Below are positions 237 through 29,013 of a stretch of DNA of 32,000 nucleotides, piece after piece (position 1 is the first letter of the stretch; every line of letters starts with the position of its first letter). Both the position numbers and the translations under genes were made by a program. The stretch lies in the NCBI RefSeq assembly GCF_003966335.1, contig NZ_CP034549.1, positions 1,080,001 through 1,112,000 on the forward strand. Direction: 5' to 3'. This stretch comes from Nonlabens ponticola. GTDB taxonomy: Bacteria > Bacteroidota > Bacteroidia > Flavobacteriales > Flavobacteriaceae. A model generated the notes under the pieces. The model saw only the letters and a list, made by a program, of their open reading frames with translations, was not told the origin of the DNA and did no database searches.

Positions 237-1784
237 ATGAGCAATATCAAAGCAAAATCCGCATTAATTTCAGTATTTCACAAAGATGGTCTAGAGCCTA
301 TTGTTAAGAAAATGAATGATTTAGGAATCACTATTTACTCTACTGGTGGTACTGAAAAGTTTATCACAGATCTAGGAATTCCCGTAACTCCTGTTGAAGA
401 CGTGACCTCTTATCCATCCATTTTAGGCGGCCGAGTGAAGACATTGCACCCTAAAGTTTTTGGCGGTATTCTTAATCGTCGCGATCATGATGGAGACAAA
501 GAACAGCTAACGGAATATGATATACCACAAATTGATATCGTCATCGTTGATTTGTATCCATTTGAAGATACCGTTGCGAGCGGTGCTAGTGAGCAAGATA
601 TTATTGAGAAAATTGACATAGGTGGTATTTCGCTCATAAGAGCAGCCGCCAAAAATTTTAAGGACACACTCTGCGTAGCTACCATGCAGGACTATGGCAA
701 ATTGCTGGATGTGCTAGAAAAAGGTTCTGGATCAACAACGCTGGATCAGCGCAAGGAATTTGCAACCACTGCCTTCAATGTGAGCTCCCATTATGACAGC
801 GCGATTTATGAATACTACGCTGGTGACGCATTGGACAAATCTCTCAAGATAAGCGAGACCCATGTCATGCCACTGCGCTATGGTGAGAATCCGCATCAGA
901 AAGGCTGGTTCTACGGTGATTTTGATCAGATGTTTATCAAGCATCATGGTAAAGCACTTTCTTATAACAACCTGCTAGATGTTGATGCTGCAGTAAATCT
1001 CATGAGCGAGTTTGTAAATGAGGCGCCAACTTTCGCCATATTTAAGCACAACAATGCTTGCGGCATAGCTCAACGTGAAACTATTGAACAGGCCTACGTA
1101 GATGCTTTGGCTGGTGATCCGGTGTCTGCTTTTGGCGGGATTTTGATAGCTAATACGGCTATAGATGCTGCGACTGCTAGCAAGATTCATGAGTTATTTT
1201 GCGAGGTTGTCATTGCGCCATCCTTCAACCCAGATGCATTGGAGATTTTAAAGGGCAAGAAAAATAGAATTATGCTGGAGCTTGTTGATGGTGCGCTTTC
1301 GCGAAAGCGTAACAACCCAACACCAGAGGTGCGATCATCGCTTAACGGCTATCTAGTTCAAGATCCTAACTTAAAAACAGACACCGTTGCAGATTTATCT
1401 ACCGCTACTGACTTAGAGCCGACTGCTGAGCAAGTAGAAGATTTATTATTTGCTTCTAAAATTTGTAAGCATACTAAATCAAATACTATCGTGCTGGTCA
1501 AGGATAAGCAATTGTGCGCCAGTGGTACTGGACAAACTTCTAGGGTTGATGCCTTGAATCAAGCGATTCATAAGGCAGAATCTTTTAAGTTTGATTTGCA
1601 AGGTGCTGTCATGGCAAGTGATGCATTTTTCCCATTTCCAGACTGTGTAGAGATAGCTGATAATGCAGGAATAAAAGCCGTAATCCAGCCAGGTGGATCT
1701 ATTAAAGATCAACTTTCTATTGATTATTGTAATAAAAACGGTCTAGCGATGGTTTTTACAGGTACAAGACACTTTAAACACTAG
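237..1784 (+). CDS. purH: Bifunctional AICAR formyltransferase / IMP cyclohydrolase
   Basis: 515-aa ORF. The N-terminal MGS-like domain (ALISVFHKDGL...YSTGGT...GRVKTLHP) and the C-terminal AICARFT region (LRYGENPHQ, KHNNACG, ...FTGTRHFKH end) are typical of PurH. Confidence 0.97.
   Translation: MSNIKAKSALISVFHKDGLEPIVKKMNDLGITIYSTGGTEKFITDLGIPVTPVEDVTSYPSILGGRVKTLHPKVFGGILNRRDHDGDKEQLTEYDIPQIDIVIVDLYPFEDTVASGASEQDIIEKIDIGGISLIRAAAKNFKDTLCVATMQDYGKLLDVLEKGSGSTTLDQRKEFATTAFNVSSHYDSAIYEYYAGDALDKSLKISETHVMPLRYGENPHQKGWFYGDFDQMFIKHHGKALSYNNLLDVDAAVNLMSEFVNEAPTFAIFKHNNACGIAQRETIEQAYVDALAGDPVSAFGGILIANTAIDAATASKIHELFCEVVIAPSFNPDALEILKGKKNRIMLELVDGALSRKRNNPTPEVRSSLNGYLVQDPNLKTDTVADLSTATDLEPTAEQVEDLLFASKICKHTKSNTIVLVKDKQLCASGTGQTSRVDALNQAIHKAESFKFDLQGAVMASDAFFPFPDCVEIADNAGIKAVIQPGGSIKDQLSIDYCNKNGLAMVFTGTRHFKH
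1295..1308. repeat. Iterated palindrome GCTTTCGCGAAAGC, copy 1 (inside purH, read as LSRK; 16-bp palindrome 1294-1309)
   Basis: Exact 14-mer read directly from the sequence. The right flank is GTAA. Confidence 0.95.
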
Positions 1785-1836
1785 AATTGTTTAGTTTTGC
1801 AATACCCTAATTACTAACGTTTTTCCGCTCAATTTT

Positions 1837-2871
1837 ATGGGATTTTTTGATTTCCTCACAGAAGATATTGCCATCGACCTAGGTACGGCAAATACACTTA
1901 TCGTGCATAATGGCAAGGTCGTCGTTGACAGTCCATCCATTGTTGCTCGCGATCGTACCACAGGCAAGATTATCGCTGTCGGGACTGAAGCGGCGATGAT
2001 GCAGGGAAAAACCCATGAAAACATCAAAACCATCAGGCCATTGAAAGATGGTGTTATTGCAGACTTTGACGCGAGTGAGAAGATGATCTCGATGTTCATC
2101 AAGGAAATACCTGCATTGAAGAAAAAACTTTTCACGCCATCATTGCGCATGGTGATATGTATACCATCTGGAATTACTGAAGTTGAAATGCGAGCGGTAA
2201 AAGACAGTGCAGAGCGTGTAAACGGTAAAGAAGTGTATCTAATCCACGAACCTATGGCAGCTGCAATAGGTATAGGCGTCGACATCATGCAGCCTAAAGG
2301 TAACATGATCGTGGACATAGGTGGCGGAACGACTGAGATCGCCGTCATAGCACTAGGTGGTATCGTTTGTGATAAATCTGTAAAAATTGCAGGTGACGTT
2401 TTTACAAACGACATCGTTTACTACATGCGCACGCAACATAACCTTTACGTAGGTGAGCGCACTGCAGAGAAGATTAAAATACAAATAGGTGCCGCCACTG
2501 AAGATCTTGAAGTGCCGCCAGAAGAGATGAATGTCCAAGGACGTGATCTTCTTACTGGTAAGCCTAAAGAAGTAAAAATAGGCTATCGCGAGATTGCTAA
2601 GGCGCTTGATAAATCGATCTTGAGAGTAGAAGATGCGGTAATGGAAACACTATCGCAAACACCACCAGAACTTGCTGCAGATATCTATAATACTGGTATC
2701 TATCTGGCTGGTGGTGGATCCATGCTACGTGGACTGGATAAAAGATTATCTCAAAAAACAGATCTACCGGTTTATATCGCAGAAGATCCTTTAAGAGCCG
2801 TAGTACGTGGTACCGGTCTTACCCTAAAAAACCTTGATAAATACAAGAGCGTATTAGCTAATAAGTACTAG
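1837..2871 (+). CDS. mreB: Rod shape-determining actin-like protein MreB
   Basis: 344-aa ORF with actin-fold motifs (IDLGTANT, DIGGGTTE, LAGGGSMLRGLD). It is followed by mreC and mreD. Confidence 0.97.
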   Translation: MGFFDFLTEDIAIDLGTANTLIVHNGKVVVDSPSIVARDRTTGKIIAVGTEAAMMQGKTHENIKTIRPLKDGVIADFDASEKMISMFIKEIPALKKKLFTPSLRMVICIPSGITEVEMRAVKDSAERVNGKEVYLIHEPMAAAIGIGVDIMQPKGNMIVDIGGGTTEIAVIALGGIVCDKSVKIAGDVFTNDIVYYMRTQHNLYVGERTAEKIKIQIGAATEDLEVPPEEMNVQGRDLLTGKPKEVKIGYREIAKALDKSILRVEDAVMETLSQTPPELAADIYNTGIYLAGGGSMLRGLDKRLSQKTDLPVYIAEDPLRAVVRGTGLTLKNLDKYKSVLANKY

Positions 2872-2874
2872 AAC

Positions 2875-6113: not shown

Positions 6114-7397
6114 ATGTATGCAGCCATAGGCAACAAGCCTAAATTTGACCTGTGGATCATCCTCATTTACCTGGCACTCATCGCTATAGGATGGTTGAGT
6201 ATTTACAGTGCCGCATCTGTAGAGCAGTATGAATCCATACTTGATATGAATCAGGTTTATGGCAAGCAGCTCTTGTGGATAGGTCTCGCCGTATTTCTTA
6301 TTGTTATTATTCTCGCTGTTGAGGTCAAATTCTATGAACGATTTGCTGGTATCATCTATGTCATTTCCTTGTTGTCCTTGGCAGGATTGTTCGTTTTTGG
6401 TAAAGAGATTGCTGGTGCGACCTCATGGTATGCCTTTGGGCCAGTGAGCTTACAGCCTAGTGAGTTTGCCAAATTTGCCACCGCACTTGCCGTGGCTAAG
6501 TACTTAAGCCAGCTGGATATCAATGTACGTGACCTCAAGCATCTTATTATAGTAAGCGGTATTATTTTACTGCCAGCCATCCTGATTGTACCGCAGCCAG
6601 ATCCTGGTAGCGCACTCGTTTATAGCGCATTTTTCTTTGCCCTTCATCGCGAGGGTTTGTCGCTCTGGTTCCTAACGCTAGGCTTGGTGGCGCTAGCCTT
6701 GTTCATAGGCAGCTTGTTAATTGGCCCGATCTGGGTTACAGTGACTGTTATTGTTGTGTTGCTTTTGTTGTTTTTGCTTTCGCGAAAGCGTTACAAACAA
6801 AGACGTACTGCAAAACCAGCAGTCTCGTGGTACTTACTTGCCATGGTGGTCTGTGCGGCATTTGCCTTCTCTACACAATACGTGTTTGATAATCTCTTCC
6901 AGGAGCGTCACAGGAATCGTATAAATATTGTGCTAGGCCTAGTGGAAGACAGCCAGGGCGTGCAGTATAATATTATTCAAAGTGAGATCGCGATAGGTAG
7001 TGGTGGCCTTACTGGTAAAGGATTGCTGCAAGGCACGCAAACCCAAGGTGGTTTTGTGCCAGCTCAGGATACAGATTTTATATTCTCAGCCATAGGTGAA
7101 GAATGGGGTTTTCTAGGTGCAGGATTTACGGTGATACTATTCATGGCACTCGTCTATCGACTAGTCATCATGGCAGAGCGTCAACGCAATCAATTTGCTC
7201 GCGTTTATGGGTACTGCGTGGCAGGAATCTTCTTTATCCACTTTTTTATAAATATAGGAATGGTGTTGGGCTTGTTGCCTACCGTTGGCATACCATTGCC
7301 TTTTATGAGTTACGGTGGTAGTGGACTTTGGGGTTTTACCATACTGCTGTTCATCTTTGTAAAGTTGGATGCGCACAGAATGAGTTATGATCATTGA
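6114..7397 (+). CDS. rodA: SEDS-family peptidoglycan glycosyltransferase RodA
   Basis: 427-aa polytopic membrane ORF with SEDS signatures (QPSEFAK, DTDFIFS..GEEWGF, PLPFMSYGGS). It sits immediately after mrdA. Confidence 0.93.
   Translation: MYAAIGNKPKFDLWIILIYLALIAIGWLSIYSAASVEQYESILDMNQVYGKQLLWIGLAVFLIVIILAVEVKFYERFAGIIYVISLLSLAGLFVFGKEIAGATSWYAFGPVSLQPSEFAKFATALAVAKYLSQLDINVRDLKHLIIVSGIILLPAILIVPQPDPGSALVYSAFFFALHREGLSLWFLTLGLVALALFIGSLLIGPIWVTVTVIVVLLLLFLLSRKRYKQRRTAKPAVSWYLLAMVVCAAFAFSTQYVFDNLFQERHRNRINIVLGLVEDSQGVQYNIIQSEIAIGSGGLTGKGLLQGTQTQGGFVPAQDTDFIFSAIGEEWGFLGAGFTVILFMALVYRLVIMAERQRNQFARVYGYCVAGIFFIHFFINIGMVLGLLPTVGIPLPFMSYGGSGLWGFTILLFIFVKLDAHRMSYDH
6776..6789. repeat. Iterated palindrome GCTTTCGCGAAAGC, copy 2 (inside rodA, read as LSRK)
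   Basis: Exact 14-mer. The right flank is GTTA. Confidence 0.95.
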
Positions 7398-8189
7398 TTA
7401 CCAGCCGCGTCGCGCTGTTTGAGCCTCTAGTTTTTCCTCAATATCATGTGGCAATTGCGCAAAAAAGTCTGTACCAGTCATTGTTTCAATTTGATCAACG
7501 CTGATTAGATAGGAATTCAAGCTGGTATCTTGATCATCTTGAGATAGCAAATAGGCGAGAATCACTGGCTGATCATTGGTTTCCCTAAGTATAATTTTAT
7601 AAAAGCTTCTGGGAACGGTAACATTTTCATTACCTATACTGGATAGATTATTTCCCAAAATACTACCGGTAACAATATATAGATCACCATATTGCTGCGC
7701 ATAACGACGCACTTGCTGTTCTAGATCATTCCAGATACCAGCATTAAACTCATGAAGTTGTGGACTTATATTGCTAGTCAGGAATGTCTCGTTAAAATCC
7801 TGAATGCTACCACGTCTATCGCCAGCAGGAACTAGGTGACCACGATCATAACCACTGTTTTTATAATTGCGCCAGCTGGCAGCTCCTGTGGATACTTGGT
7901 CATCGATCTCAAAGTAAGGTCGTTTAAAATCTACCTGCTGGATGTCTGATGGACGCAGGACGTGCGCAGTCCATTCTGCCTGCTCATGTCTTTCATTATA
8001 GGATAGGCTGTAGGATTTGTGATGAATCACTTGATTTGTGCTGCTAGGCAAATAATCAGTCACATCTAGATCACTAGATCGTTGGTTTTCAAAATTTTCC
8101 TTGGAAATCGCCTCATTTTGATAGTCTTCTATGAGAATCATGCCTACAATTAGTCCGATGACAATGATTATCGTTAAAATCTTTTTCAT
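7398..8189 (-). CDS. Exported DNA/RNA non-specific endonuclease (Serratia NucA / Endonuclease_NS family)
   Basis: 263-aa ORF with an N-terminal hydrophobic anchor/signal (MKKILTIIIVIGLIVGMILI), the catalytic DRGH motif (GYDRGHLVPAGD) and a downstream NISPQ Asn. Confidence 0.85.
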   Translation of the reverse strand: MKKILTIIIVIGLIVGMILIEDYQNEAISKENFENQRSSDLDVTDYLPSSTNQVIHHKSYSLSYNERHEQAEWTAHVLRPSDIQQVDFKRPYFEIDDQVSTGAASWRNYKNSGYDRGHLVPAGDRRGSIQDFNETFLTSNISPQLHEFNAGIWNDLEQQVRRYAQQYGDLYIVTGSILGNNLSSIGNENVTVPRSFYKIILRETNDQPVILAYLLSQDDQDTSLNSYLISVDQIETMTGTDFFAQLPHDIEEKLEAQTARRGW

Positions 8190-9295
8190 GAGCTTGATTT
8201 TACATCCAGCGCATCTCGCAGTGCATTGCCAAAAAGCATAAAAGCCATAACCAGCGTCATGATCGCTACTCCAGGCACGATGGCTAGATATGCTTTATCC
8301 AGGATTATATATTGATAGTGATCTTTAATCATGCTACCCCAAGATGGAATAGGTGGTTGTGCACCTAATCCCAGAAAGCTCAGCCCACTTTCAATTAGAA
8401 TAGCGGCGGCAAAATTTGCTGCACTTATGACAATCACCGGTGCCAAAACATTGGGTAATATGTGTCGATAAATGATACGCCAGTTCTTGAATCCCAAAGC
8501 TCGTGCTGCGGTGACGTATTGATATTCTTTGGCAACAATCACTTGTCCACGTACCACGCGTGCAACTTCAACCCACATGGTAAGCCCAACAGCGATAAAA
8601 ACGGTGAAAAATCCTTTACCCAGCGCAATACTAATGGCAATGACCATGAGTAGCGTTGGTATCGACCAGGTCACGTTAATGATCCACATGATGGCCGCGT
8701 CGATTTTACCGCCGTAATATCCGGCAATAGCACCTAGCGGTATGCCAATTAGTAATGATATCAATACGGCTATAAAACCAATACTAATGCTTACTCGTGC
8801 ACCTATCAACATGCGACTCAACAGGTCACGACCGTATTTGTCTGTTCCCAGCAGGAATGTTTTCTGGGATGTGTAGCTTTCGCGAAAGCTAACCAGATCA
8901 AGCCCATCAACATTTTTCCATTGCAGTGGCTCAAACGGCATCAAGGCATCGTCCACATCGTACGGCCGATAAAACACAGTACCATCGCGCATTTCCACCT
9001 CTGCAAAGGGAATTTCTAGATTTTCATTGTTGCTACCATTCCACCACGAGAAAAAATGCGATTCCTGATTTGTCGCGTTGGGAACTTCAATCATGTCCAC
9101 GGTAAAGCCTGGTGGTTGTGAATGAATAGAGAGGTGCATCTGGTTTGCATACGGGCTATCGTCTGGCGCGAGCGCATACGCAAAAACAGCCAGAAAGGCA
9201 TAAAAGGCAATGATGGAGAAACTCAAAACGCCCCAAAAACTTGATCTAAGTTTATGGAGCGCCTGTTTTCCTAAGGATTGAGAAGCTGTAGCCAT
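8186..9295 (-). CDS. ABC transporter permease, OppC/DppC-like (no partner subunits in this window)
   Basis: 369-aa ORF. TM1 is followed by a roughly 110-aa extracytoplasmic loop and then five TM segments. The EAA-loop-like motif is AARALGFKNWRIIYRHILPN. Confidence 0.85.
   Translation of the reverse strand: MATASQSLGKQALHKLRSSFWGVLSFSIIAFYAFLAVFAYALAPDDSPYANQMHLSIHSQPPGFTVDMIEVPNATNQESHFFSWWNGSNNENLEIPFAEVEMRDGTVFYRPYDVDDALMPFEPLQWKNVDGLDLVSFRESYTSQKTFLLGTDKYGRDLLSRMLIGARVSISIGFIAVLISLLIGIPLGAIAGYYGGKIDAAIMWIINVTWSIPTLLMVIAISIALGKGFFTVFIAVGLTMWVEVARVVRGQVIVAKEYQYVTAARALGFKNWRIIYRHILPNVLAPVIVISAANFAAAILIESGLSFLGLGAQPPIPSWGSMIKDHYQYIILDKAYLAIVPGVAIMTLVMAFMLFGNALRDALDVKSSS
8876..8889. repeat. 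Iterated palindrome GCTTTCGCGAAAGC, copy 3 (inside the permease gene, read as FRES on the minus strand; 18-bp palindrome 8874-8891)
   Basis: Exact 14-mer. The flanks extend it to TAGCTTTCGCGAAAGCTA. Confidence 0.95.
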
Positions 9296-13746: not shown

Positions 13747-14388
13747 ATGGAGATTTTTGGGATTACGCTTTCGCGAAAGCAAAATAATTATAAATCACTT
13801 TACATCGCAGGAGCATTGAGTTTGTCAATCATGTTTCTTGCAAGTTGCGGTAGTGCACGTCCTAAAGTTATCACGACCAAAAAGGAGGCGCTGCGCAAGG
13901 GAAAAGTCCAAAATAGATCTACATCGACTGCCAGTCGAGGCCAAGACAATTATGAAATATACCAGCCCGAAGATGATGAATTGTTGACGGTCGAGAGTAA
14001 TTCCTTAATTGACGATGCGATTGAAAATGCTATGAAATATGACGGCGTGCGATATAAATATGGCGGTTCTACTAGAAAGGGCATGGATTGTAGCGGCTTG
14101 ATTCATATTGCGTTTGATGAGGCTGGCGAGCAAGTGCCCAGAACGAGTGCCAGTTTTTATGCCGCAAGTGAGGCGATTGATATCGATGAGGTGCGCAAGG
14201 GTGATTTGATGTTTTTTGCCACGGGTCGCAACCGTAAAAAAATCAATCACGTGGCGCTAGTCGTGCAAGTCACGCCTGCCGAAATACGTTTTGTACACGC
14301 CACCGTTTCTCGCGGTGTCACGGTTTCTTCTTTTAATGAGCCGTACTGGTTGGGCAGATATATCAGTTCAGGAAGACTTATTCCTTAA
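13747..14388 (+). CDS. NlpC/P60 (C40) family peptidoglycan peptidase lipoprotein
   Basis: 213-aa ORF with a lipobox (FLASCGS), catalytic Cys context GMDCSGLI and His context INHVALV. Confidence 0.85.
   Translation: MEIFGITLSRKQNNYKSLYIAGALSLSIMFLASCGSARPKVITTKKEALRKGKVQNRSTSTASRGQDNYEIYQPEDDELLTVESNSLIDDAIENAMKYDGVRYKYGGSTRKGMDCSGLIHIAFDEAGEQVPRTSASFYAASEAIDIDEVRKGDLMFFATGRNRKKINHVALVVQVTPAEIRFVHATVSRGVTVSSFNEPYWLGRYISSGRLIP
13767..13780. repeat. Iterated palindrome GCTTTCGCGAAAGC, copy 4 (codons 7-12 of the NlpC/P60 gene, read as LSRK)
   Basis: Exact 14-mer. The left flank is TTAC, the mirror image of GTAA. Confidence 0.95.
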
Positions 14389-16478: not shown

Positions 16479-17002
16479 TCTTGGAGCTGGTAATTGAAGT
16501 TGGCTTGATAATCTGCCCAGTCCTTTCCTGTTCTTATGGATTTGTAGGTGTCGTCTGCCAGCATGGTGACATAGATTTCCAATTTTTTAGGACCCATCTT
16601 GCCTGGTACTGGATTGATCACATTGCCGCGCTCATCGAAGAAAATGAGCGTTGGATATTCAAAGATTCTTAGTTTTTCTGCGAGCTCGTGTTGGGCACCA
16701 CGATAGCGGCCATAGTTTTTATTGCCGTACTTTTTTCCCTTATAGGTAATGGGTTCCTTTCCTTCTGCATCAAAGGCCACTGGATAGTAGTGTGTGTTGA
16801 TGTAGTTGGCGAGTTCCGCTTTCGCGAAAGCGTGCTCATCCATCCACTTACAATTAGGACAAGACTCTGTGTAGGTCTTAAAAAGAATCTTGCGCGGCTC
16901 TTTTTTCTGCGCCGCGAGCGCGTCATTCATGCTCATCCAGTTGACCTGTGCATGAGCGGTGACAGCGATAAAAAAAAATAAGAAAGCTCCTAAAATCTTC
17001 AT
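16475..17002 (-). CDS. Secreted thioredoxin-fold protein (CPNC active-site-like motif)
   Basis: 175-aa ORF with a signal peptide (MKILGAFLFFFIAVTAHAQ), a CxxC motif (ESCPNCKWMD) and YPTLIFF typical of the thioredoxin fold. Confidence 0.75.
   Translation of the reverse strand: MKILGAFLFFFIAVTAHAQVNWMSMNDALAAQKKEPRKILFKTYTESCPNCKWMDEHAFAKAELANYINTHYYPVAFDAEGKEPITYKGKKYGNKNYGRYRGAQHELAEKLRIFEYPTLIFFDERGNVINPVPGKMGPKKLEIYVTMLADDTYKSIRTGKDWADYQANFNYQLQD
16818..16831. repeat. Iterated palindrome GCTTTCGCGAAAGC, copy 5 (inside the thioredoxin-like gene, read as AFAK on the minus strand; 16-bp palindrome 16817-16832)
   Basis: Exact 14-mer. Confidence 0.95.
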
Positions 17003-20847: not shown

Positions 20848-20995
20848 AAGTATTGTGTGATGCTCAATAAATATTCCGCAAATCGGAAGTTCTTCAATTT
20901 TACTAAAAATTTCCCAATTTACACGGGTTTTCTGCGATTATCATTGGGATTCCTTAAACTCACACATTGTATATTTACAATCTTACTATTTGCCC

Positions 20996-22306
20996 ATGAG
21001 ACAACCTGTTCAAGGATTTTCCAGACTTTCCAAAACCGAAAAAATTGACTGGCTCATCGCCCATAATCTCAACAACGATCCTACAGCTCGCGAGATACTC
21101 TTGCAATACTGGAACAGCGACGAGAAATTACAGGAATTGCACGATGGCTTTAGTGAGAATACCATCTCAAATTATTATTTGCCGCTAGGTCTGGCTCCCA
21201 ATTTTTTGATCAATGACAAGCTCGTCACCATTCCTATGGTGATTGAAGAGAGTAGTGTGGTGGCTGCTGCCAGTAAGGCGGCAAAATTCTGGCTGGATCG
21301 CGGTGGATTCAAGACGACGATTAAGGGCACGACAAAATCTGGGCAGGTACATATTACCTATGCTGGATTGCGCAGTGAGATGGATGCTTTTTATGCTTTC
21401 GCGAAAGCTGACTTATTACAATCTACTGAGCAAATCAATGCTAGTATGAAAGCTCGAGGTGGTGGCCTGCTAGACTTGCAGCTGGTGGATAAAACCAAAG
21501 ATCTACAAGGATACTATCAATTGCACGCGACATTTGACACGCGCGATGCGATGGGAGCCAATTTTATCAATACCATGCTTGAGCAACTAGCGACGACATT
21601 TAGAGAAAAAGCTGCTCAATTTCAGGGCTTTTCTATTGCTCCACCAGAGGTTGTTATGAGCATCTTGAGCAATTATGTGCCAGATTGTACTGTTCATGTG
21701 GAGACTAGATGCAGTATCGATAAATTGGGTATCATCAACGGCATTAGCGGTGCAGACTTTGCCCGCAAGTTTGTGCAAGCCGTTGATATCGCCATTGCCG
21801 AGCCTTACCGAGCGGTAACACACAATAAAGGAATTATGAACGGCATTGATGCCGTGGTGCTTGCCACGGGAAATGACTTTAGAGCTGTAGAAGCTGGTGT
21901 TCATGCCTATGCCGCGCGCGATGGGCAGTATCGCAGTTTGACGCGCGCTAGAGTAGAGGACAACGAACTGATTTTTGAAGCAGAATTCCCATTGGCTTTA
22001 GGAACGGTTGGTGGATTGACTTCGCTGCATCCACTGGCAAAATTATCCTTACAAATTATGGGCAATCCCGATGCTCGTGAACTCATGTCTTTTACTGCCG
22101 TTTGTGGATTGGCTCAAAATTTTGCTGCATTACATTCATTAGTAACCACAGGAATCCAGGCAGGACACATGAAAATGCATCTAGCAAACATGCTGGAACA
22201 AGTAGGCGCAACCGATGCTGAAAAAGTCAAGTTAAGAGAAGCTTTTTCAAAGACCACACCTAGCTATTCTTCCTTAAAAGAAGAAATACAGAAACTAAGA
22301 TCCTGA
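20996..22306 (+). CDS. Hydroxymethylglutaryl-CoA reductase
   Basis: The track ORF starts at a TTG (20990). I prefer the ATG at 20996. HMGR motifs are present: EESSVVAAAS, DAMGAN, GTVGG, and the catalytic His context AGHMKMH. Confidence 0.93.
   Translation: MRQPVQGFSRLSKTEKIDWLIAHNLNNDPTAREILLQYWNSDEKLQELHDGFSENTISNYYLPLGLAPNFLINDKLVTIPMVIEESSVVAAASKAAKFWLDRGGFKTTIKGTTKSGQVHITYAGLRSEMDAFYAFAKADLLQSTEQINASMKARGGGLLDLQLVDKTKDLQGYYQLHATFDTRDAMGANFINTMLEQLATTFREKAAQFQGFSIAPPEVVMSILSNYVPDCTVHVETRCSIDKLGIINGISGADFARKFVQAVDIAIAEPYRAVTHNKGIMNGIDAVVLATGNDFRAVEAGVHAYAARDGQYRSLTRARVEDNELIFEAEFPLALGTVGGLTSLHPLAKLSLQIMGNPDARELMSFTAVCGLAQNFAALHSLVTTGIQAGHMKMHLANMLEQVGATDAEKVKLREAFSKTTPSYSSLKEEIQKLRS
21395..21408. 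repeat. Iterated palindrome GCTTTCGCGAAAGC, copy 6 (inside the HMG-CoA reductase gene, read as AFAK)
   Basis: Exact 14-mer. Confidence 0.95.
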
Positions 22307-23308: not shown

Positions 23309-25426
23309 CTAATAGAATACCGCTCTTTTATCTTCAATATCTGTTGCTTTTTTAAGCGCCTCAACCAGTGCAGATGTAGACTGATTTGCCGTGCGTTGCG
23401 CAACGATTCTAGCATCATTGGTATAATTCTCAAGTTCTGGTGCATTTTCGACACCTGTAACTTTAATCATAAAGACACCTTTCTCACCAGCAATAGCTTT
23501 TGAGGTAGCGCCTTCTTTTAAACCAAAAGCAGTTCCCACCACTCGTGGCTCTTGACCTACACCAGCAATGACTGGTGATTGACGGCTTATACCATTAGCA
23601 GTTTGGACAGTCACATTATTATTAGTCGCAACACTGTTCAAGTCAGTAGCTTTGATCTTGTTGATGATGATGTCTGCTTTTTTCTTGTTTCTCAAGATAG
23701 GTGTGACCTTGGCGCTAGCTTCTTCTGGAGTCATAACACCAGCCTTGCTTATTTTATTCACCTTGGCAACGACATAACCTTGCGTAGTTTCAAAACGTTC
23801 TACATCACCTACTTCACGACCATCTTTAAATGCCCATTGCACAATAGCACGATTGCGGCCTATTCCTGGTAGGTTTTCGTCTAGTTCTTTCAAGTTTAAA
23901 ACAGGACGTGGCGTCACATTGTATTCTTTGGCTAACTCGTCAAAGTCACCATCTTCTGCTGCTTGTTGGAATTTTTGGGTATTGGTGTAATTCTGTTTGT
24001 TGGTAGCTTTAGATGGAATAGATTTCTTTGCAACAGTAGCTAGTTTCAAGGCTTCTACAGGAGCAGATGTCTCATCGATACGTATCACGTGATAACCAAA
24101 ATCACTTTCAGTCACGCCTACAGTTCCTTCATTATTTGCATAGAGGAATTTTGTGTAGCCTGGTGCAAAATTTGCCGCATTACCAGAATACACAGTCCAG
24201 CCTATATCTTGAGCTAGGATGTCGTCCACATTTTCCTCATAGTAAGCAAATCTCGTGTCATACTTATCCTTGCTTTGACCTATAGTTCCTAGAATGCTAT
24301 CTGCGAGTTTTTTTGCCTCGTTCTTAGTACGATTCATATCAGATCCTGCACGAGTTGCGCCAGAATAAGGCACTAAGATGTGACGGTTCTTCACGCTGTC
24401 ACTAATGGTTCTTTTTTCTAGAACCTTAGTAATTTTAGAATATTCACCGTCTTTGTAAGGACCGTAAACTTCGCCAGTTTCAGTTTGTGCGAGTCTTGCT
24501 TGTGCAGCATTAAGATTAGAAACTAGAACATAACGATCATTGTATGGCAAGTCAGAGTTTGCATTTACAAACGCTTTAGAATTATCTGTGGTTTTCAAGC
24601 CTGGAGCATCTTCAGTTTCCTTAGTTTGCTCGTTGTATTGGTTTTGCTTGCCGTTAAGCAATGCAACCATCTCGTCATTGAGAGCCGCAACATCCTCATT
24701 GGATGCTTTGTCCTCAAACAATACATAAGTGATGTCTCTTTCGGCTTCAGCTTTAAATTGAGACTCGTGATCCTTGATGTAGCTTTTGATTTCAGATTTA
24801 GTTACTTCAACAGTTGAATCTGGAATGCTGCTGTAAGGTATGTTTACAAATTGAAAATCACGCTTATCATTCTCCATGCGATAGGCTAGCGCGCCATCAG
24901 CATTTGTTCCTATCACGCCTGATTTAAGAAGGGCAAAAAATTGAGCCTGGCGCACCTGGCTTGCTGCATTGTCAAGATCTTGTTGCCATCCTGCTGGATT
25001 GGATTGAGATACCTGATTTACAAACTGTGCAAATTTGGTTTCAGAAAATTGACCGTTCTCATCTTGAAATTGTGGTGCTCTAGAATAAGCGGCTTTTAAG
25101 TAATTACGCACTTGCTCATCAGTCACCTCAATGCCAGCTGCGTCAATCTGCTCTGCAAGAACGGCATCGCGTACTTTTTGATTCCACACAATATTTGCTG
25201 CCTGTACGGTAGATATACCTTGACGCTGATTCATAGTCGCCTCGACACTGTTGCTAAATTCCTGACGGCTCAACTCTGTATCACCTACATATCCTATCAC
25301 GTTCTCGTTACCGCTAGAAAAACTTCCTTGACGTATCAAATCGCCTATAATAAAGGCAAATAATGCCAGTGCAATGATGATGATCAGGAACAAGCCTTGA
25401 GATCTAATTTTACCTAAAACGGCCAT
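23309..25426 (-). CDS. PpiD/SurA-like periplasmic chaperone, parvulin-type peptidyl-prolyl isomerase, membrane anchored
   Basis: 705-aa ORF with an N-terminal TM anchor (GLFLIIIIALALFAFIIGDLI), a SurA-N-like region and parvulin-like segments (NRHILVPYSG ... FGYHVIRID). Confidence 0.85.
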   Translation of the reverse strand: MAVLGKIRSQGLFLIIIIALALFAFIIGDLIRQGSFSSGNENVIGYVGDTELSRQEFSNSVEATMNQRQGISTVQAANIVWNQKVRDAVLAEQIDAAGIEVTDEQVRNYLKAAYSRAPQFQDENGQFSETKFAQFVNQVSQSNPAGWQQDLDNAASQVRQAQFFALLKSGVIGTNADGALAYRMENDKRDFQFVNIPYSSIPDSTVEVTKSEIKSYIKDHESQFKAEAERDITYVLFEDKASNEDVAALNDEMVALLNGKQNQYNEQTKETEDAPGLKTTDNSKAFVNANSDLPYNDRYVLVSNLNAAQARLAQTETGEVYGPYKDGEYSKITKVLEKRTISDSVKNRHILVPYSGATRAGSDMNRTKNEAKKLADSILGTIGQSKDKYDTRFAYYEENVDDILAQDIGWTVYSGNAANFAPGYTKFLYANNEGTVGVTESDFGYHVIRIDETSAPVEALKLATVAKKSIPSKATNKQNYTNTQKFQQAAEDGDFDELAKEYNVTPRPVLNLKELDENLPGIGRNRAIVQWAFKDGREVGDVERFETTQGYVVAKVNKISKAGVMTPEEASAKVTPILRNKKKADIIINKIKATDLNSVATNNNVTVQTANGISRQSPVIAGVGQEPRVVGTAFGLKEGATSKAIAGEKGVFMIKVTGVENAPELENYTNDARIVAQRTANQSTSALVEALKKATDIEDKRAVFY

Positions 25427-25451
25427 GCTATATTTTTTAAATTAAAACGGT

Positions 25452-25560: not shown

Positions 25561-25574
25561 GCTTTCGCGAAAGC
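25561..25574. repeat. Iterated palindrome GCTTTCGCGAAAGC, copy 7 (intergenic, 38 nt downstream of the CNNM/CBS gene stop)
   Basis: Exact 14-mer. The right flank is GTAA. This is the only non-coding copy. Confidence 0.95.
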
Positions 25575-25612: not shown

Positions 25613-26887
25613 TTATTCTTCACGCACTATAACAAGTTTAACCAGGTCGATCTTATTATGGGATTTTTCTAGGATCGTAAATTGAAACTGGTCGATGATG
25701 ACTTCTTCACCTTCATCAGGAATATTTTCTGTCACGTGGACAATCAAACCGCCTAGTGTCTCGTATTGTTCACTTTCTGGTAATTCTAGTTTGTAACGTT
25801 CATTCAAATAGTCGACCTCGATTCTTGCGCTCAACTTGTACTCGTCATCACTTATTTGTGAATCGATCAATTGATCGCTGTCATGCTCATCCTCGATCTC
25901 GCCAAATAGCTCTTCTACAATATCTTCAACGGTGATTAATCCGGATGTACCACCATATTCATCCAGCACGATGGCAACACTCTTGTGGCGTTTGATGAGT
26001 AGATTTAAAACGTCCTTGACCAGCATGGTTTCTGGAACGTTTACAATATTACGGCGTATGCCAGCAATGTTTTCAGGTGATTTAAATAGGTCAAAACTAT
26101 GAACATAGCCAGTGATGTCGTCAATGGTATCATCATGGATTAAGATCTTGCTCAATCCGGTGGCGACAAACTTTTTACTTAGTTCCTTGATTTCGGTATC
26201 GCTGTGTACGGCAATCATCTCAGTACGTGGTACCATAACCTCACGAGCCTTGAGCCCACCAAAATCCAGAGCATTCTGGAAAATCTGTATCTCAGTATCG
26301 ACATCTTCCTGCTCTTGGGCGCTTTCCATTTGCTCTGTGATGTAGTTTCCTAACTCCAGTTTAGAGAACGACAGTTGTATCTCATCACCATCTGTCTTGA
26401 AGAAGGTCTTGAGAAAAAAGTCTGATATCTTGATGCAAAACCATGAAATAAACCAGAAGGCTAGGTAGAATAGATAGGCTGGGATCGCAAAGAACTTGAG
26501 TAACTCATTAGCATAGATCTGGAAAAAGACTTTAGGTAAAAACTCCGCAGTGAGTAGAATTACCACGGTAGAAATCAAGGTTTGAAGCAATAGCAATTGA
26601 AAACTACCTTCTAACAACGATGGATAGAATGATTGTAGCTGTGCCGTGAGCAAATCACCCATGACAAACCCGTAGACGACCAGCGCGATGCTGTTCCCTA
26701 TGAGCATGGTAATGATAAACTTAGATGGTTGTGCAGTAAGATTGCGCAACACTTTGCCTATAAAATCCTGCTGTCTTTTCTCGAGCTCTATATGAATCTT
26801 GTTAGAACTCACATAAGCGATCTCCATACCTGAGAAAAAGGCACTGAGCACCAGCATGGTGATGATAAGAAGAATTTGTAACAGCAT
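25613..26887 (-). CDS. CNNM/CorC-HlyC family membrane protein (DUF21 TM domain + CBS pair + CorC_HlyC; hemolysin-like/GldE-like)
   Basis: 424-aa ORF. The N-terminal four-TM region is followed by a CBS pair (REVMVPRTEM ..., VAIVLDEYGGTSGLITVEDIVEELFGEI) and a C-terminal transporter-associated domain. Confidence 0.9.
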   Translation of the reverse strand: MLLQILLIITMLVLSAFFSGMEIAYVSSNKIHIELEKRQQDFIGKVLRNLTAQPSKFIITMLIGNSIALVVYGFVMGDLLTAQLQSFYPSLLEGSFQLLLLQTLISTVVILLTAEFLPKVFFQIYANELLKFFAIPAYLFYLAFWFISWFCIKISDFFLKTFFKTDGDEIQLSFSKLELGNYITEQMESAQEQEDVDTEIQIFQNALDFGGLKAREVMVPRTEMIAVHSDTEIKELSKKFVATGLSKILIHDDTIDDITGYVHSFDLFKSPENIAGIRRNIVNVPETMLVKDVLNLLIKRHKSVAIVLDEYGGTSGLITVEDIVEELFGEIEDEHDSDQLIDSQISDDEYKLSARIEVDYLNERYKLELPESEQYETLGGLIVHVTENIPDEGEEVIIDQFQFTILEKSHNKIDLVKLVIVREE

Positions 26888-27081
26888 TATGGCTTATTGC
26901 GTTCTTCAAATCTACGACGGAAACGCCTCTTGAAGAAAAACATAAATACGGCGATGGCACCCATGAATAGGAGAACATAGGATCGAGATCGATCTATGTT
27001 CCATTCATAGATAGCAGTAGCAAAGAACAATAATGCAAATGCTACGTAGGCATATTCAAAGTATTTGAAAAATTTACTCAT
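26887..27081 (-). CDS. Small two-TM membrane protein with a basic tail, function unknown
   Basis: 64-aa ORF with two hydrophobic helices and the tail KRRFRRRFEERNKP. It is translationally coupled on both sides: an 8-nt overlap with the upstream gene and a 1-nt overlap with the downstream gene. Confidence 0.5.
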   Translation of the reverse strand: MSKFFKYFEYAYVAFALLFFATAIYEWNIDRSRSYVLLFMGAIAVFMFFFKRRFRRRFEERNKP

Positions 27082-27616: not shown

Positions 27617-27648
27617 CGTTTTTAATATGTAGTGACAGGATTTTATCA

Positions 27649-29013
27649 CTATGGTATTCTTACGGATTCTCCTATCCAGCATCCTATAGATATCGTACTA
27701 CCAGAATTATATTTTTCACTCATGAAAATATCATTCTTTTGTGGCGCGCTTGCGTTATAGCTAGCGACTGATTTAAGTGCATTACCCTTGATTGAAGGGT
27801 CAACGGCAGCAGCTTTGCGAGCATATCTTGCAGCGACCCAATAAACAGCACGCTTTTCAAGAGTTGTGCTTCCACAGCTATTGGCACTATTTGCAACCAT
27901 ACTTGCGATTTGTAAATATGGTGCGCCAAAGGAAGGCTTTGCCTCATTAGACTTGATGAACTCTCTTTTTGCCTGGCTGTACTTACCTTGATCTTTAAGA
28001 ACAATACCTTTCTTGTAATGAATTTTTGATACAAGATCATTACTCACACCTAATTCAACTGCTTGATCCCAGTACTTGAACTTCTCAGTCGTCGTGCTTG
28101 CGATGTTTCCTAGACCATAAGCAGTCTTACCACTAGGTCTCAACTCATGCAACGCTTTTACAGATGTGATATACAATGGGGCATCAGTACAATCTTTTGA
28201 CTGTAATCTTTTAAGAACGTTAGATAACCAGTTCTCATCAGCTTTTTTGTTATCAAATTCTGCCTCATATAATGGAATCAATTTGTCACAATCTGCTAGT
28301 TCACCTAGCGTTTTGTTTACACTACCCATCACGATGCCGTAATTCTTGATATTGGTTTCCTGAGCATCGATCTGCTCAAGTTCTTTGTCTGTAATAGTGC
28401 CAGCGTTTTGCTTGTCTAGCAAATCACTCAATATCTTACTACGTTCATCCTGCACATTCTCAATTTGTAGCGTTAACGCATCATAAATATCAAAAAAGCC
28501 TTGAAGATTTACCTTTTCTGCCTCATAACGCTTTTCAGCTAAGGTGAAGTAGGTAATCATCGCATTAGGATCTGTAAATTCATCTGGATTATTCATGAAT
28601 TCATTCTCTAGCATCTTGTACTGCTCGTCATCAGAGCCTATCTTGTACTTATACATCGTGCGAGCGATCTCCATGTTCTTTTTAGGAACATTTATCTTAT
28701 CAGGGAACCTATCAACTTGACCATGTAACATGTCTAGTAGACCTTTAGCATTTTCAGCCTCTGTACCGATGTTTTTTCTAAGTCTGTGCTCGTATATACG
28801 CTCACCGTATTGATAAATGGCTGCGCTTGCCGTAGGACATTGCTTAACTAGTGGATCTAGTTGTTTGTATGCCTCATCATAATTTCTTGCTTTTGCGTTT
28901 TCCGCAAATATTTGTAACATCACATTACAATCGTCTGCCTGTTGCGCTTCCGCGAAAGCGAAACTGAAAACAGCTGTTGCAGCAACTAAAAGGTTTCTCG
29001 TTTTCATAATCAT
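27649..29013 (-). CDS. Secreted alpha-helical TPR-like repeat protein, function unknown
   Basis: 454-aa ORF with a signal peptide (MIMKTRNLLVAATAVFSFAFAEAQQ). It is helical and repeat-like, with a TPR-like C-terminal segment (KKGIVLKDQGKYSQAKREFIKSNEAKPSFGAPY) and six Cys residues. Confidence 0.7.
   Translation of the reverse strand: MIMKTRNLLVAATAVFSFAFAEAQQADDCNVMLQIFAENAKARNYDEAYKQLDPLVKQCPTASAAIYQYGERIYEHRLRKNIGTEAENAKGLLDMLHGQVDRFPDKINVPKKNMEIARTMYKYKIGSDDEQYKMLENEFMNNPDEFTDPNAMITYFTLAEKRYEAEKVNLQGFFDIYDALTLQIENVQDERSKILSDLLDKQNAGTITDKELEQIDAQETNIKNYGIVMGSVNKTLGELADCDKLIPLYEAEFDNKKADENWLSNVLKRLQSKDCTDAPLYITSVKALHELRPSGKTAYGLGNIASTTTEKFKYWDQAVELGVSNDLVSKIHYKKGIVLKDQGKYSQAKREFIKSNEAKPSFGAPYLQIASMVANSANSCGSTTLEKRAVYWVAARYARKAAAVDPSIKGNALKSVASYNASAPQKNDIFMSEKYNSGSTISIGCWIGESVRIP
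28946..28959. repeat. Iterated palindrome, degenerate copy 8 (GCTTCCGCGAAAGC, one mismatch at 28950; read as AFAEA in the signal peptide of the TPR-like protein)
   Basis: 13 of 14 positions match. It has C/G flanks, as in copies 1 and 5. Confidence 0.8.

Follow-up and report, generated by a model that had tools for sequence, protein, structure and literature searches.

A Previously Undescribed Palindromic Genomic Tag of Unproven Function in Nonlabens, Dokdonia, and Related Flavobacteriaceae

Introduction

The 32-kb window of Nonlabens ponticola DNA considered here (the whole stretch that was analyzed) carries the 14-bp palindrome GCTTTCGCGAAAGC in seven exact copies and one copy with a single mismatch, where about 1e-4 would be expected, and this raises the question of what such a word is and what keeps it in place. 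All eight positions given in a preliminary description made from the sequence alone were reproduced, and its estimate of ~40% G+C agrees with the measured 0.40–0.44; copies with two mismatches were absent from the window. We found no published description of this element, which is a previously undescribed genomic tag with an unproven function. By analogy with known uptake sequences, we favor, at a probability of roughly 0.4, the reading that it may be a sequence-specifically recognized "self" tag in DNA uptake, in homologous recombination, or in both, acting on fragments of a few kb.

Results

The Word and Its Copies in the Window

Gene contexts were assigned by Pfam and synteny, and agree with the six genes and one intergenic site named previously. 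Two exact copies are read as L-S-R-K-R, one in purH (copy 1295..1308; gene 237-1784, + strand) and one in rodA (6776..6789; 6114-7397, +), the latter directly past a transmembrane helix. The copy in an ABC-type permease gene (8876..8889; 8186-9295, −; BPD_transp_1) is read as F-R-E-S, and those in a thioredoxin-like gene (16818..16831; 16475-17002, −) and the HMG-CoA reductase gene (21395..21408; 20990-22306, +) as A-F-A-K-A. Another lies at the extreme 5′ end of an NlpC/P60 gene (13767..13780; 13747-14388, +), 20 nt inside the ORF and 22 nt past the stop of the lpxB-like gene upstream, and the seventh (25561..25574) is intergenic, flanked by genes for CNNM/CorC (25613-26887, −) and for a SurA-like PPIase (23309-25426, −). 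The one-mismatch copy (28946..28959), GCTTCCGCGAAAGC (T5>C), is probably a decaying or nascent site; it is located near the 5′ end of the ORF at 27649-29013 (−), previously labeled "TPR-like," for which a Pfam search returned no match. It should be noted that comEC is also present in the window (14397-16478), which, as the preliminary description had cautioned, is uninformative about uptake because ComEC is syntenic in outgroups that do not have the word.

The copies are far beyond chance: dinucleotide shuffles averaged 0.09 matches when ≤2 mismatches were allowed, with 0/100 of them reaching eight, and Markov models of order 1 to 5 predict 1e-5 to 4e-2 exact words per 32 kb against the seven observed. 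Shuffling synonymous codons with all proteins kept (n = 200) regenerated only 0.025 copies, not counting the intergenic copy, which such shuffling leaves as it is, and the copies occupy all three reading frames (AFAKA 59, RFRES 25, LSRKR 26) as well as DNA outside long ORFs (41), so that an artefact of codon or dipeptide usage, an explanation raised at the outset, is rejected. The full tally is 166 exact copies against 14 with one and 14 with two mismatches (about 12:1:1), with no symmetric or compensated variants among the mismatched ones. Neither GCGAAAGC nor TTCGCGAA is enriched as a solitary word, and TTCGCGAA occurs almost never outside the complete 14-mer. The word is a DNA-level, sequence-specific feature. 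The even spread reported earlier was likewise recovered, with a CV of spacing of 0.27 within the window (P = 0.0024 vs. random placement) and of 0.27–0.32 overall, and two gaps <1 kb between copies where 14.5 were expected.

Distribution across the Clade and in Phages

Among the 120 word-carrying 8-kb tiles listed, at least 91 are from Dokdonia, Nonlabens, BBFL7, or uncultured Flavobacteriaceae or are unclassified, together with six from four other flavobacterial genera, and among the matches listed those of the clade are scattered across whole chromosomes. Other phyla account for 29/120, all singletons without the flank pattern described below. In loci picked through rodA or purH, and so blind to the word, 138.9 kb contain 30 exact copies, a density of about 1 per 4.6 kb that is similar at loci ~3%, 51%, and 54% along the chromosome records. 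We estimate about 600–700 copies per Nonlabens or Dokdonia chromosome. The syntenic Christiangramia and Rasiella loci have 0 copies at ≤3 mismatches. The word is genome-wide in many Nonlabens and Dokdonia species, as had been proposed by comparison with HIP1, uptake sequences, and Noc sites; it is specific to these two genera and their uncultured relatives in the Flavobacteriaceae and absent from neighboring genera. An assembly artefact is excluded, because numerous independent assemblies, of isolates as well as MAGs, have the word at orthologous positions.

Complete elements are also carried by temperate-phage-like or prophage-like contigs, and the lytic Nonlabens phages P12024S and P12024L, near-identical genomes that encode their own ERF/YqaJ recombination genes and their own primase, have 0 copies (for P12024S by itself, Poisson P about 4e-4). 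We count this difference toward the self-tag reading; that the element is conserved in temperate-phage lineages, however, would suit a role in chromosome maintenance just as well.

Extended Architecture of the Element

Around the 14-mer, its invariant core, extends an element of ~70 bp with two-fold symmetry that Nonlabens and Dokdonia share; the consensus TTAC-GCTTTCGCGAAAGC-GTAA forms a palindrome of 16–22 bp. Flanks had been described as unrelated beyond ~4 nt, which is correct with regard to homology, the copies sharing none, but not with regard to composition, which shows a strong and mirror-symmetric bias over arms of about 25–30 nt per side: 5′ of the core each strand is C-poor and GT-rich, and the 3′ arm is G-poor. 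In the 5′ arm of both strands TTGT, TGTG, GTGG, and GTTG are ~3-fold enriched, and T recurs with a periodicity of 3 nt independent of the reading frame. Within the window, the purH copy has a GT-rich left and an AC-rich right arm (span about 1268–1335), the rodA copy has the strongest GT-rich left arm, and the intergenic copy at 25561 combines a clearly GT-rich left arm with a weakly AC-rich right arm (0.525). The skew is two-sided at each site, and neither pairing between the two arms nor arm covariation was found. This architecture, like the positional conservation and the word-hosting in-frame insertions described below, goes beyond the preliminary description.

The RNA would form a hairpin with a G-poor, C/A-rich tract of ~25 nt behind it, reminiscent of a rut site, and the copy number is near that of E. 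coli REP. An RNA-level element working in both transcription directions, whether as terminator or attenuator, for Rho loading (rut), or as a hairpin that stabilizes mRNA, is nonetheless extremely improbable: copies lie mostly within ORFs in the sense direction, compensatory stem variants are absent, no Rfam family matches the element, 0 copies were flagged as terminator-like, the tail being A-rich without a T run, and typical rut sites are much longer than the tract seen here. Terminators and known RNAs are rejected as identities of the element.

The word places GCGAAAGC on each strand, which as single-stranded DNA forms an extraordinarily stable mini-hairpin with resistance to exonucleases and low affinity for SSB (PMC13037366). 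If the element were a Chi-like recombination signal or exonuclease stop working in both directions, each strand, when unwound at a break or entering single-stranded, would fold into the palindrome or this mini-hairpin and thereby block or reprogram a helicase-nuclease or 3′ exonuclease, the adjoining 5′ GT-rich tract would be the preferred RecA loading zone, and palindromy would let the signal work from both sides. RecA prefers GT-rich DNA and binds it in triplets, which the GT-rich 5′ arm with its T periodicity matches; the density of E. coli Chi is likewise close to 1 per 4.6 kb, the regular spacing fits a need for coverage, and the lytic phages without the word have recombination genes of their own. 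Chi sites, however, are 5–8 nt long, asymmetric, strand-skewed, only few-fold over-represented, and irregularly spaced. Nearest-neighbor calculation gives the hairpins modest energies of −2 to −7 kcal/mol, and since solitary mini-hairpin words are unenriched and the stable variants GCGAAGC and GCGCAAGC unused, structure alone is not selected; we consider a Chi-like role unlikely.

GCGAAAGC is also found at the primase start site of phage G4, where SSB is excluded (PMC13037366), and a single-strand initiation signal would make of the hairpin and its unstructured arms a primase/primosome entry or replication-restart site on the lagging-strand template, like the G4-type ssi. This would be in keeping with an arm composition that precludes G–C pairing inside each arm, with a symmetric design that suits either fork direction, and with the absence of the word from lytic phages that have their own primase. 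It is very improbable all the same, given that a spacing of ~4 kb exceeds the typical Okazaki fragment length, that the exact conservation of the 14-mer exceeds what a structural signal needs, and that we know of no bacterial chromosome requiring sequence-specific priming signals.

Positional Conservation and In-Frame Insertions

Sites are orthologous between Nonlabens species at 63–76% nucleotide identity. Both the purH and the rodA copies are kept in N. marinus, N. dokdonensis, and N. spongiae, the rodA copy also in L018; the permease copy has an equivalent in Nonlabens L014, L018, and N. marinus, the NlpC/P60 copy a match in N. xylanidelens L014 and another, at 17699, in the syntenic N. marinus L121 gene, and the thioredoxin-like copy is kept in N. 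marinus. The permease site of L170 has decayed to two mismatches, and LSQKR/LTQKR variants among homologues are decayed orthologous sites. The alignments indicate that sites have been maintained over long periods, with occasional decay.

Small in-frame insertions are present at 3/4 sites compared with outgroups, the inserted lengths being 0, 6, 18, and 21 nt. The purH copy sits in an 18-nt insertion that Christiangramia and Rasiella do not have and that is encoded in 53/53 Nonlabens-group and 0/67 outgroup PurH sequences (120 listed, 37 of them with LSRK proper); the rodA copy lies within a 21-nt insertion (LSRK in 82 RodA homologues, missing from 38 outgroup ones, among the matches listed); and at the permease site Rasiella has no copy and is 6 nt shorter. 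Christiangramia aligns to the thioredoxin-like site as NTFTNKD with no indel, so that this copy arose by substitutions only. The differing lengths imply that no fixed element is involved and, with neither a fixed-size insertion nor an extended hairpin element in evidence, the earlier statement that the word is not a mobile element, regulon operator, or local duplication holds, and a mobile element is rejected.

A selfish or mutational by-product without cellular function could take the form of a tiny mobile palindrome, of biased very-short-patch-type repair linked to a methyltransferase that recognizes TCGCGA/CGCG, or of template-switch "palindrome correction." Such an origin would fit the insertions, the confinement to one clade, and the TCGCGA/CGCG within the core, on which a methyltransferase could plausibly act, as an analogy with HIP1 suggests (PMC4390886). 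We regard it as highly unlikely: the inserted lengths are unequal, a length of 14 bp is not divisible by 3, arms that do not covary bear no template-switch signature, and an arm skew present on both sides of every site rules out a mutational footprint of replication direction. Moreover, neutral replenishment does not predict long conservation and even spacing, methyltransferase sites are ≤8 bp, yet TTCGCGAA is nearly absent outside the 14-mer, and lytic phages of the same hosts are without the word.

The main rival to the self-tag reading is an architectural site, in which every palindrome would be occupied by a dimeric nucleoid-associated protein in contact with ~25–30 bp on either side, and the regularly spaced sites would organize the chromosome in ~4 kb units; a Noc/SlmA/ParB-like factor, a condensin/topoisomerase loading or boundary site, and a HIP1-style role in nucleoid structure are candidates. 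A perfect palindrome of operator size (16–22 bp) with a symmetric ~70 bp footprint argues for it, as do the strongly regular spacing, the long-term conservation of positions, the like density at ~3%, 51%, and 54% of the chromosome records, and the presence of the element in chromosome-resident prophage-like DNA and not in lytic phages; for HIP1, a parallel inference was drawn from conservation and periodicity (Xu et al. 2018). We nevertheless find it doubtful, in that ~600–700 nearly invariant 14-mers are far more numerous and far less degenerate than the known sites of Noc, SlmA, MatP, or parS, no candidate protein came to light, duplex-reading proteins have no obvious need for one strand to be C-less over 25 nt, and the half-sites are spaced as TTTC-GC-GAAA here versus TTTC-N4-GAAA in parS/NBS. 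Noc sites, for instance, number about 70.

Discussion

For the self-tag reading, we infer that the element is recognized by a protein and that the process concerned is uptake or recombination. A candidate factor, either a dimeric receptor or a DNA-binding protein, would bind the exact palindrome and is perhaps part of the Flavobacteriales-specific transformation machinery, for which we know of no DNA receptor. Tag-bearing fragments would be preferentially taken up or recombined, and recombination (molecular drive) would continually restore and spread perfect copies, and/or selection would keep them. A second tag near an existing one would bring little gain, which would lead to the regular ~4 kb spacing, and copies would settle where the protein tolerates them, such as in variable loops, at the cleavage sites of signal peptides, and where transmembrane helices end, sometimes arriving via small in-frame insertions. 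We offer only as a suggestion that the GT-rich tracts 5′ of the core might be preferred RecA/ssDNA-protein loading zones. We know of no demonstration of competence in Nonlabens or Dokdonia, which counts against uptake. The reading gains plausibility from the natural competence described in Flavobacteriales, with a preference for self-DNA and no uptake sequence identified (PMC7965970); their transformation machinery is lineage-specific and widespread among marine genera (PMC8459023).

We propose the Haemophilus USS, the Neisseria DUS, and the cyanobacterial HIP1, itself conserved, quasi-periodic, and now proposed as an uptake signal, as counterparts of the flavobacterial element. Known uptake sequences are asymmetric 9–12-mers at ~1 per kb, whereas here a perfect palindrome of 14–22 bp occurs at ~1 per 4.6 kb, and mismatched copies are proportionally commoner in USS/DUS genomes. 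The ~70 bp two-fold footprint and the strand-specific composition suggest a large dimeric nucleoprotein complex or a feature at the single-strand level, neither of which, to our knowledge, is known for uptake receptors. A consensus with weaker flanks is shared with the Haemophilus USS and its 29-bp extended consensus (PMC1939737). USS are also spaced significantly evenly (Karlin, cited in PMC1939737), and the spacing of the flavobacterial element (CV ~0.3) is more regular than that reported for them.

Copies in the Window and Expectation by Chance

All copies of the palindrome GCTTTCGCGAAAGC that the preliminary description had listed in the window were recovered: seven exact copies, starting at positions 1295, 6776, 8876, 13767, 16818, 21395, and 25561, and one copy with a single mismatch, starting at 28946; copies with two mismatches were not found in the 32 kb. 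By chance, the 14-mer is expected about 1e-4 times per 32 kb, and dinucleotide shuffles of the window yield 0.09 matches at up to two mismatches. The preliminary description had left it to codon-preserving shuffles and Markov models to expose a by-product of codon usage, and neither regenerates the word: Markov expectations of orders 1–5 range from 1e-5 to 4e-2 exact copies in the window, and 200 synonymous-codon shuffles in which all proteins were kept produced 0.025 copies beyond the untouched intergenic one. The even spread noted at the outset also holds, the eight positions being placed more evenly than at random (coefficient of variation [CV] 0.27, P = 0.0024).

Pfam matches and synteny support the gene names originally assigned to purH, rodA, the BPD_transp_1 permease, NlpC/P60, the thioredoxin-like gene, HMG-CoA reductase, and comEC, but not the label "TPR-like" for the open reading frame (ORF) at 27649–29013 on the minus strand, which has no Pfam match at E ≤ 1e-5. 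The RodA and PurH proteins encoded in the window are 100% identical to those of N. ponticola. The comEC gene is also carried by outgroups without the word. The sole Rfam matches in the window are two tRNA genes on the minus strand (31012–31086 and 31142–31214), a region with 87% identity over 247 nt to a Nonlabens stretch (L040) from the scan described below.

Distribution across Genomes

To survey the word we scanned one genome for each of 185,579 species, which returned at least 120 word-containing stretches of 8 kb (tiles). Among the 120 tiles listed, 91 derive from Dokdonia, Nonlabens, strain BBFL7, uncultured Flavobacteriaceae, or unclassified bacteria, plus six of four other flavobacterial genera (Leeuwenhoekiella, Aquimarina, Flavobacterium, and Altibacter). 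The clade tiles listed represent many species and contigs, with positions dispersed along complete chromosomes, which rules out a local parS-like cluster; the remaining 29 of the 120 are singletons from unrelated phyla without common flanks.

Loci of ~21 kb each were fetched through rodA or purH and are therefore unbiased for the word. The loci of N. marinus, N. dokdonensis, and N. spongiae contain six, four, and five exact copies, respectively, and those of two uncultured relatives five and three; together with the window, this amounts to 30 copies in 138.9 kb, or one per 4.6 kb. No copy, even at three mismatches, is present in the corresponding syntenic regions of Christiangramia echinicola and Rasiella rasia. 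A zero-truncated Poisson fit to the listed tiles gives one copy per 5.6 kb for Dokdonia and one per 7.9 kb for the Nonlabens tiles. Copy density hardly differs between loci situated about 3%, 51%, and 54% along the chromosome records, and by extrapolation we estimate about 600–700 sites per chromosome. From the tile distribution, the unbiased loci, and the empty outgroup loci, it follows that the word is genome-wide and clade-specific; the genome-wide iterated word proposed from the window alone is thus real in both Nonlabens and Dokdonia, and it cannot be an assembly artefact. Comparison of Dokdonia with Nonlabens tiles by tblastx found no orthologous overlaps, and the PurH homologues fetched as a route to Dokdonia were Nonlabens-like.

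Isolated exact copies occur in other genera of the Flavobacteriaceae: at 7055 in tile L071, at 157 and 1090 in L110 (Aquimarina), in L030 and L112 (Leeuwenhoekiella), and in L101 and L107. Two Aquimarina species have in common an orthologous signal-peptide site (…FVSAFAKAQQL…) with an exact copy. These isolated copies outside the clade may have arisen by chance or by horizontal transfer, or they may reflect the same system at low density.

Level of Constraint

We classified 151 copies by reading frame, with ORFs of at least 360 nt counted as long. The three frames of the 14-mer, encoding AFAKA, RFRES, and LSRKR, are used 59, 25, and 26 times, and 41 copies lie outside long ORFs. The copies within long ORFs (about 73%) are found at signal-peptide cleavage sites, just past transmembrane helices, and in variable loops. 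The use of all three frames and the 41 copies outside long ORFs rule out a peptide motif; the three frames, together with the Markov expectations and synonymous-codon shuffles, likewise rule out codon, dipeptide, or oligonucleotide bias, the word being long enough to make chance and codon usage irrelevant.

A total of 748 kb of clade DNA contains 166 exact copies, 14 copies with one mismatch, and 14 with two, and none of the mismatched copies is a palindrome-symmetric variant. The inner words TTCGCGAA and GCGAAAGC are almost never found outside the full 14-mer, and GCGCAAGC, checked as a second word, is not one. The unit maintained is the full sequence and neither a peptide, nor a pattern of codons, nor a generic hairpin. 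A role at the RNA level is extremely improbable: no Rfam family overlaps any copy in the window and no copy scored as terminator-like in a terminator scan, which rules out a terminator or a known RNA.

Architecture of the Element

Across the 151 copies, the 5' neighbour of the 14-mer is C in 79% and the 3' neighbour G in 80%, followed outward by TT on one side and AA on the other, and the non-coding copies extend to the 22-bp palindrome TTACGCTTTCGCGAAAGCGTAA. The left arm, about 25–30 nt long, is poor in C (2–9% vs. 19%) and enriched in T and G, and the right arm is its mirror, G-poor and A/C-rich; GT-rich tetramers are about threefold enriched in the arms. T peaks at every third nucleotide, at distances of 4, 7, 10, and 13 from the core (e.g., window positions 6746–6775 and 6790–6819), with an identical phase in the non-coding copies and in all but one of the six coding frame and arm classes, the exception being the flat upstream arm of RFRES. 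As this phase is the same across frames and non-coding copies, codon structure is not the cause of the periodicity. All of these features are common to the Dokdonia and Nonlabens copies.

Non-coding copies and each of the three reading-frame classes show the arm bias, in upstream and downstream arms alike. At individual sites both arms are skewed; the distribution is unimodal, and the inter-arm correlation is not negative. The bias is therefore neither a coding artefact, which the frame-independent T phase also rules out, nor a one-sided mutational footprint of replication or transcription, and the skew also runs opposite to the direction that pausing-associated deamination would produce.

An extended imperfect hairpin or MITE is ruled out as well: folds of copies with 40-nt flanks give stems that are inconsistent between copies, past position 2 the mirrored complementarity of the arms does not differ from the column expectation, and real arm pairs fold no better than chimeric ones (p = 0.55). 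The core includes TCGCGA/CGCG, and nearest-neighbour calculations give its DNA hairpins a modest stability (14-mer, −2.1; 16-mer, −4.3; 22-mer, −7.3 kcal/mol). On either strand, the 3' half of the palindrome is identical to the 8-mer mini-hairpin d(GCGAAAGC) of Hirao and colleagues, which melts at about 76 °C, is nuclease-resistant and poorly bound by SSB, and occurs at the phage G4 primase site; nearest-neighbour models capture neither its exceptional stability and nuclease resistance nor its weak binding of SSB (PMC13037366). This is a physico-chemical motif rather than a genomic system, and since solitary copies of the mini-hairpin are not enriched in these genomes, it does not explain the word by itself and is ruled out as the selected unit. 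That the element serves as a single-strand priming signal, the setting of the mini-hairpin in phage G4, is very improbable.

Site History, Insertions, and Spacing

The sites at 6776, 8876, and 13767 are position-matched across two Nonlabens tiles with ~68% overall nucleotide identity, the 14-mer being intact and the flanks diverged, and the purH and rodA sites are kept in all four named species (N. ponticola, N. marinus, N. dokdonensis, and N. spongiae). Compared with the outgroups, the word brings 18 extra nucleotides (six codons) in purH (window 1286–1303), 21 (seven codons) in rodA (6770–6790), and 6 in the permease; in the thioredoxin-like gene it brings none, NTFTNKD having become HAFAKAE by substitution. 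This variable inserted length (0, 6, 18, or 21 nt) rules out a fixed-size insertion and with it a fixed mobile unit.

PurH is 515 amino acids long in the Nonlabens group versus 509–510 in other Flavobacteriaceae, and the residues adjoining the PurH and RodA insertions are shifted toward GT-rich or AC-rich codons. Among the 120 PurH and 120 RodA homologues listed, the LSRK-type insertion is shared by all proteins of the Nonlabens group, with a few decayed variants (LSQKR and LTQKR), and the outgroup proteins lack it. The six codons of PurH and seven of RodA were added throughout the Nonlabens group by DNA-level selection for the word.

An uncultured Nonlabens-like lineage (L170/L171) has orthologous purH and permease sites, at 11059 and 18605, that have decayed to one and two mismatches, leaving a gap of 8.5 kb; this shows a slow turnover of sites. 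Orthologous conservation with occasional decay indicates that the sites are old and are kept by selection or by a restoring drive. A by-product of a selfish element or of biased repair is quite improbable.

Gaps below 1 kb in the listed tiles are 7-fold rarer than random (2 observed vs. 14.5 expected, P < 2e-4). The 23 gaps in the unbiased loci have a mean of 4.0 kb and a CV of 0.32 (range 1.5–5.5 kb), and the regularity extends to those stretches of the N. dokdonensis and N. spongiae loci that are not syntenic. The element is clade-specific, is a DNA-level feature, is sequence-specific and two-fold symmetric, has long been maintained, and recurs once every few kb.

Phages and an Iterated Word in Rasiella

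The lytic cultured Nonlabens phages P12024S and P12024L (35.7 kb each and near-identical) contain no copy at up to two mismatches, against an expectation of about eight in each genome (P about 4e-4 for P12024S). Each has its own genes for a primase, for ERF/YqaJ recombination proteins, and for DNA methyltransferases. In IMG/VR, the 16-mer occurs in 40 stretches; those of low GC content form several groups of phage-like contigs with genes for HNH endonuclease, portal, protease, major capsid, adaptor, and baseplate (hub) proteins, which could represent temperate phages, prophages, or GTA-like particles. Exact copies in these contigs lie about 4.3–4.5 kb apart, have the same skewed arms, and occupy positions conserved between related contigs (e.g., 191, 6705, and 11185 in L139; 1288, 7848, and 9087 in L162).

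A different word was observed in the rodA region of Rasiella rasia (L125), where the non-palindromic 9-mer CTTCGGAAA occurs eight times in 21 kb on both strands (positions 5062, 11372, 13054, 14138, 15748, 16355, 17151, and 19350) against an expectation of 0.31 (about 2e-4 after correction, for one locus). Several of its copies form (T)nC-TTCG-G(A)n hairpins, and two have CTTCGGAAAAGCATCG in common; Christiangramia has nothing comparable. The 9-mer may represent this lineage's own version, or dialect, of an iterated hairpin word.

A Putative Tag of Self DNA

Taken together, these features are characteristic of a "coverage" tag, one that a DNA-handling machine reads. The same combination is found in uptake sequences and in HIP1, and the Flavobacteriales include competent bacteria with a preference for self DNA, so that we rank a tag of "self" for DNA uptake or recombination first, with a probability of roughly 0.4. 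Riemerella, of this order, is naturally competent and prefers self DNA, and no uptake word has been described for the Flavobacteriales (PMC7965970); the transformation machinery of the Flavobacteriales is lineage-specific and widespread in the family, and no DNA receptor has been described for it (PMC8459023). We tentatively suggest a further reading, in which the palindrome is the recognition site of an undescribed system, a bidirectional self tag read by a receptor or a nuclease and needed strongly enough for codons to be inserted. Its build would be an ultra-stable hairpin-forming palindrome with a GT-rich, triplet-phased tract on each strand; its reader might be the DNA receptor of the Flavobacteriales-specific transformation machinery or else a recombination nuclease, for which the tag would be a structural two-way Chi; and a need for one tag per fragment of ~4 kb could have been enough to insert codons into PurH and RodA.

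Our literature search found no paper with the 14-mer and none tying Dokdonia or Nonlabens to such a palindrome. The kind is already known, and the 14-mer is a further case of a hyper-abundant, clade-specific genomic word; its length, strand-skewed symmetric arms, very regular spacing, and insertions into housekeeping proteins have not been reported for the known words. Such words are rare, and those that are understood (USS/DUS, Chi, KOPS, and parS) each revealed a core DNA-handling machine, while HIP1 has been an open question for 30 years. The 14-mer adds a case from another phylum that is independent of these and unusually clean, and its hosts, Dokdonia and Nonlabens, are cultured model marine bacteria. 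The sharp contrast between ingroup and outgroup within one family makes phylogenetic profiling for a cognate protein straightforward, and the extended symmetric architecture offers concrete handles for biochemistry. The in-frame insertions further mean that selection at the level of DNA rewrites conserved proteins. If the element does act in uptake, it could be the specificity determinant so far lacking for natural transformation of the Flavobacteriia, and the genetics of hard-to-transform organisms would benefit.

Comparison with Known Systems

REP/BIME elements (RAYT), MITEs, and Rickettsia palindromic elements (RPEs) resemble the 14-mer in being hairpin-forming, lineage-specific, and present in hundreds of copies, and RPEs also lie in-frame within genes. 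REPs, however, are extragenic, imperfect, and clustered, and MITEs and RPEs are fixed-length insertions of at least 100 bp with arms of similar sequence, whereas here 14–22 bp are conserved in ancient, evenly spaced sites, 73% of them in long ORFs, and the unpaired arms are alike in composition but not in sequence. The GC-rich hairpin with a T run, or the Rfam match, of terminators and RNA families is absent from the copies.

The Noc-binding site (NBS), parS, SlmA SBS, and matS are likewise palindromes of 14–16 bp within genes, with half-sites of the TTTC...GAAA type, and are bound by dimers. A site for an architectural nucleoid protein, favoured by the symmetric footprint of ~70 bp and the very regular spacing, is the foremost rival of the self tag, though rather unlikely. 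The known sites number in the tens, are often confined to ori or ter, and have a degenerate consensus, whereas the estimated 600–700 sites here are near-invariant and of similar density at three chromosome regions. The word matches neither TGTTNCACGTGAAACA nor ATTTCCCGGGAAAT, having only the TTTC/GAAA blocks in common and a central spacer 2 bp shorter, and its tiles are dispersed over complete chromosomes, unlike the few to about 100 ori-proximal or ter-excluded sites of parS and NBS.

Chi is also an over-represented, taxon-specific word at about one per 5 kb, and it too is absent from lytic phages with their own recombination genes; Chi itself is GT-rich, whereas here the arms are. A bidirectional Chi-like signal or exonuclease stop would offer the most direct rationale for the GT-rich, triplet-phased 5' arms and the mini-hairpin. 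We consider it unlikely: Chi is an asymmetric word of 5–8 nt, co-oriented with replication, modestly enriched, and without a hairpin, and a perfect palindrome of 14–22 bp cannot have a strand skew.

The systems nearest to the self tag that we favour are HIP1 and the uptake sequences. HIP1 (GCGATCGC) of the cyanobacteria is a clade-specific, hyper-abundant perfect palindrome inside and between genes, with conserved orthologous positions and non-random (quasi-periodic) spacing, which no peptide or RNA function explains and for which roles in nucleoid structure and in uptake or transformation are debated; the 14-mer is alike in all of these respects. It differs from the HIP1 octamer and its variants in sequence, phylum, length (14 bp, or 16–22 bp extended, vs. 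8 bp), density (about one per 4.6 kb vs. up to about once per gene), and over-representation (about 10^4- to 10^5-fold vs. 15- to 300-fold). To our knowledge, long strand-skewed arms have not been reported for HIP1, and we know of no cognate methyltransferases for the 14-mer, unlike for HIP1. Conservation and periodicity have been described for HIP1 (PMC5861425), and a role as an uptake signal is now suggested for it.

The uptake sequences of Haemophilus (USS) and Neisseria (DUS) are short words hugely over-represented in one family, with hundreds to thousands of copies and related taxa with the same word; like the 14-mer, they are used in all coding frames at tolerant, poorly constrained protein positions and have an extended consensus with weaker flanks (PMC1939737). 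Their spacing is significantly more even than random (PMC1939737). They are asymmetric 9–12-mers at about one per kb with many mismatched copies, and their uptake has been shown experimentally, whereas the 14-mer is palindromic, longer, about 4-fold sparser, more regular, and nearly free of mismatched copies. The preliminary description had likened the word to HIP1 and uptake sequences and set it apart from mobile elements, which the feature tests bear out at the level of analogy: the element lacks the features that define parS/NBS, REP/MITE, Chi, and terminators, and, while a member of neither group, it is an analogue of HIP1 and of USS/DUS.
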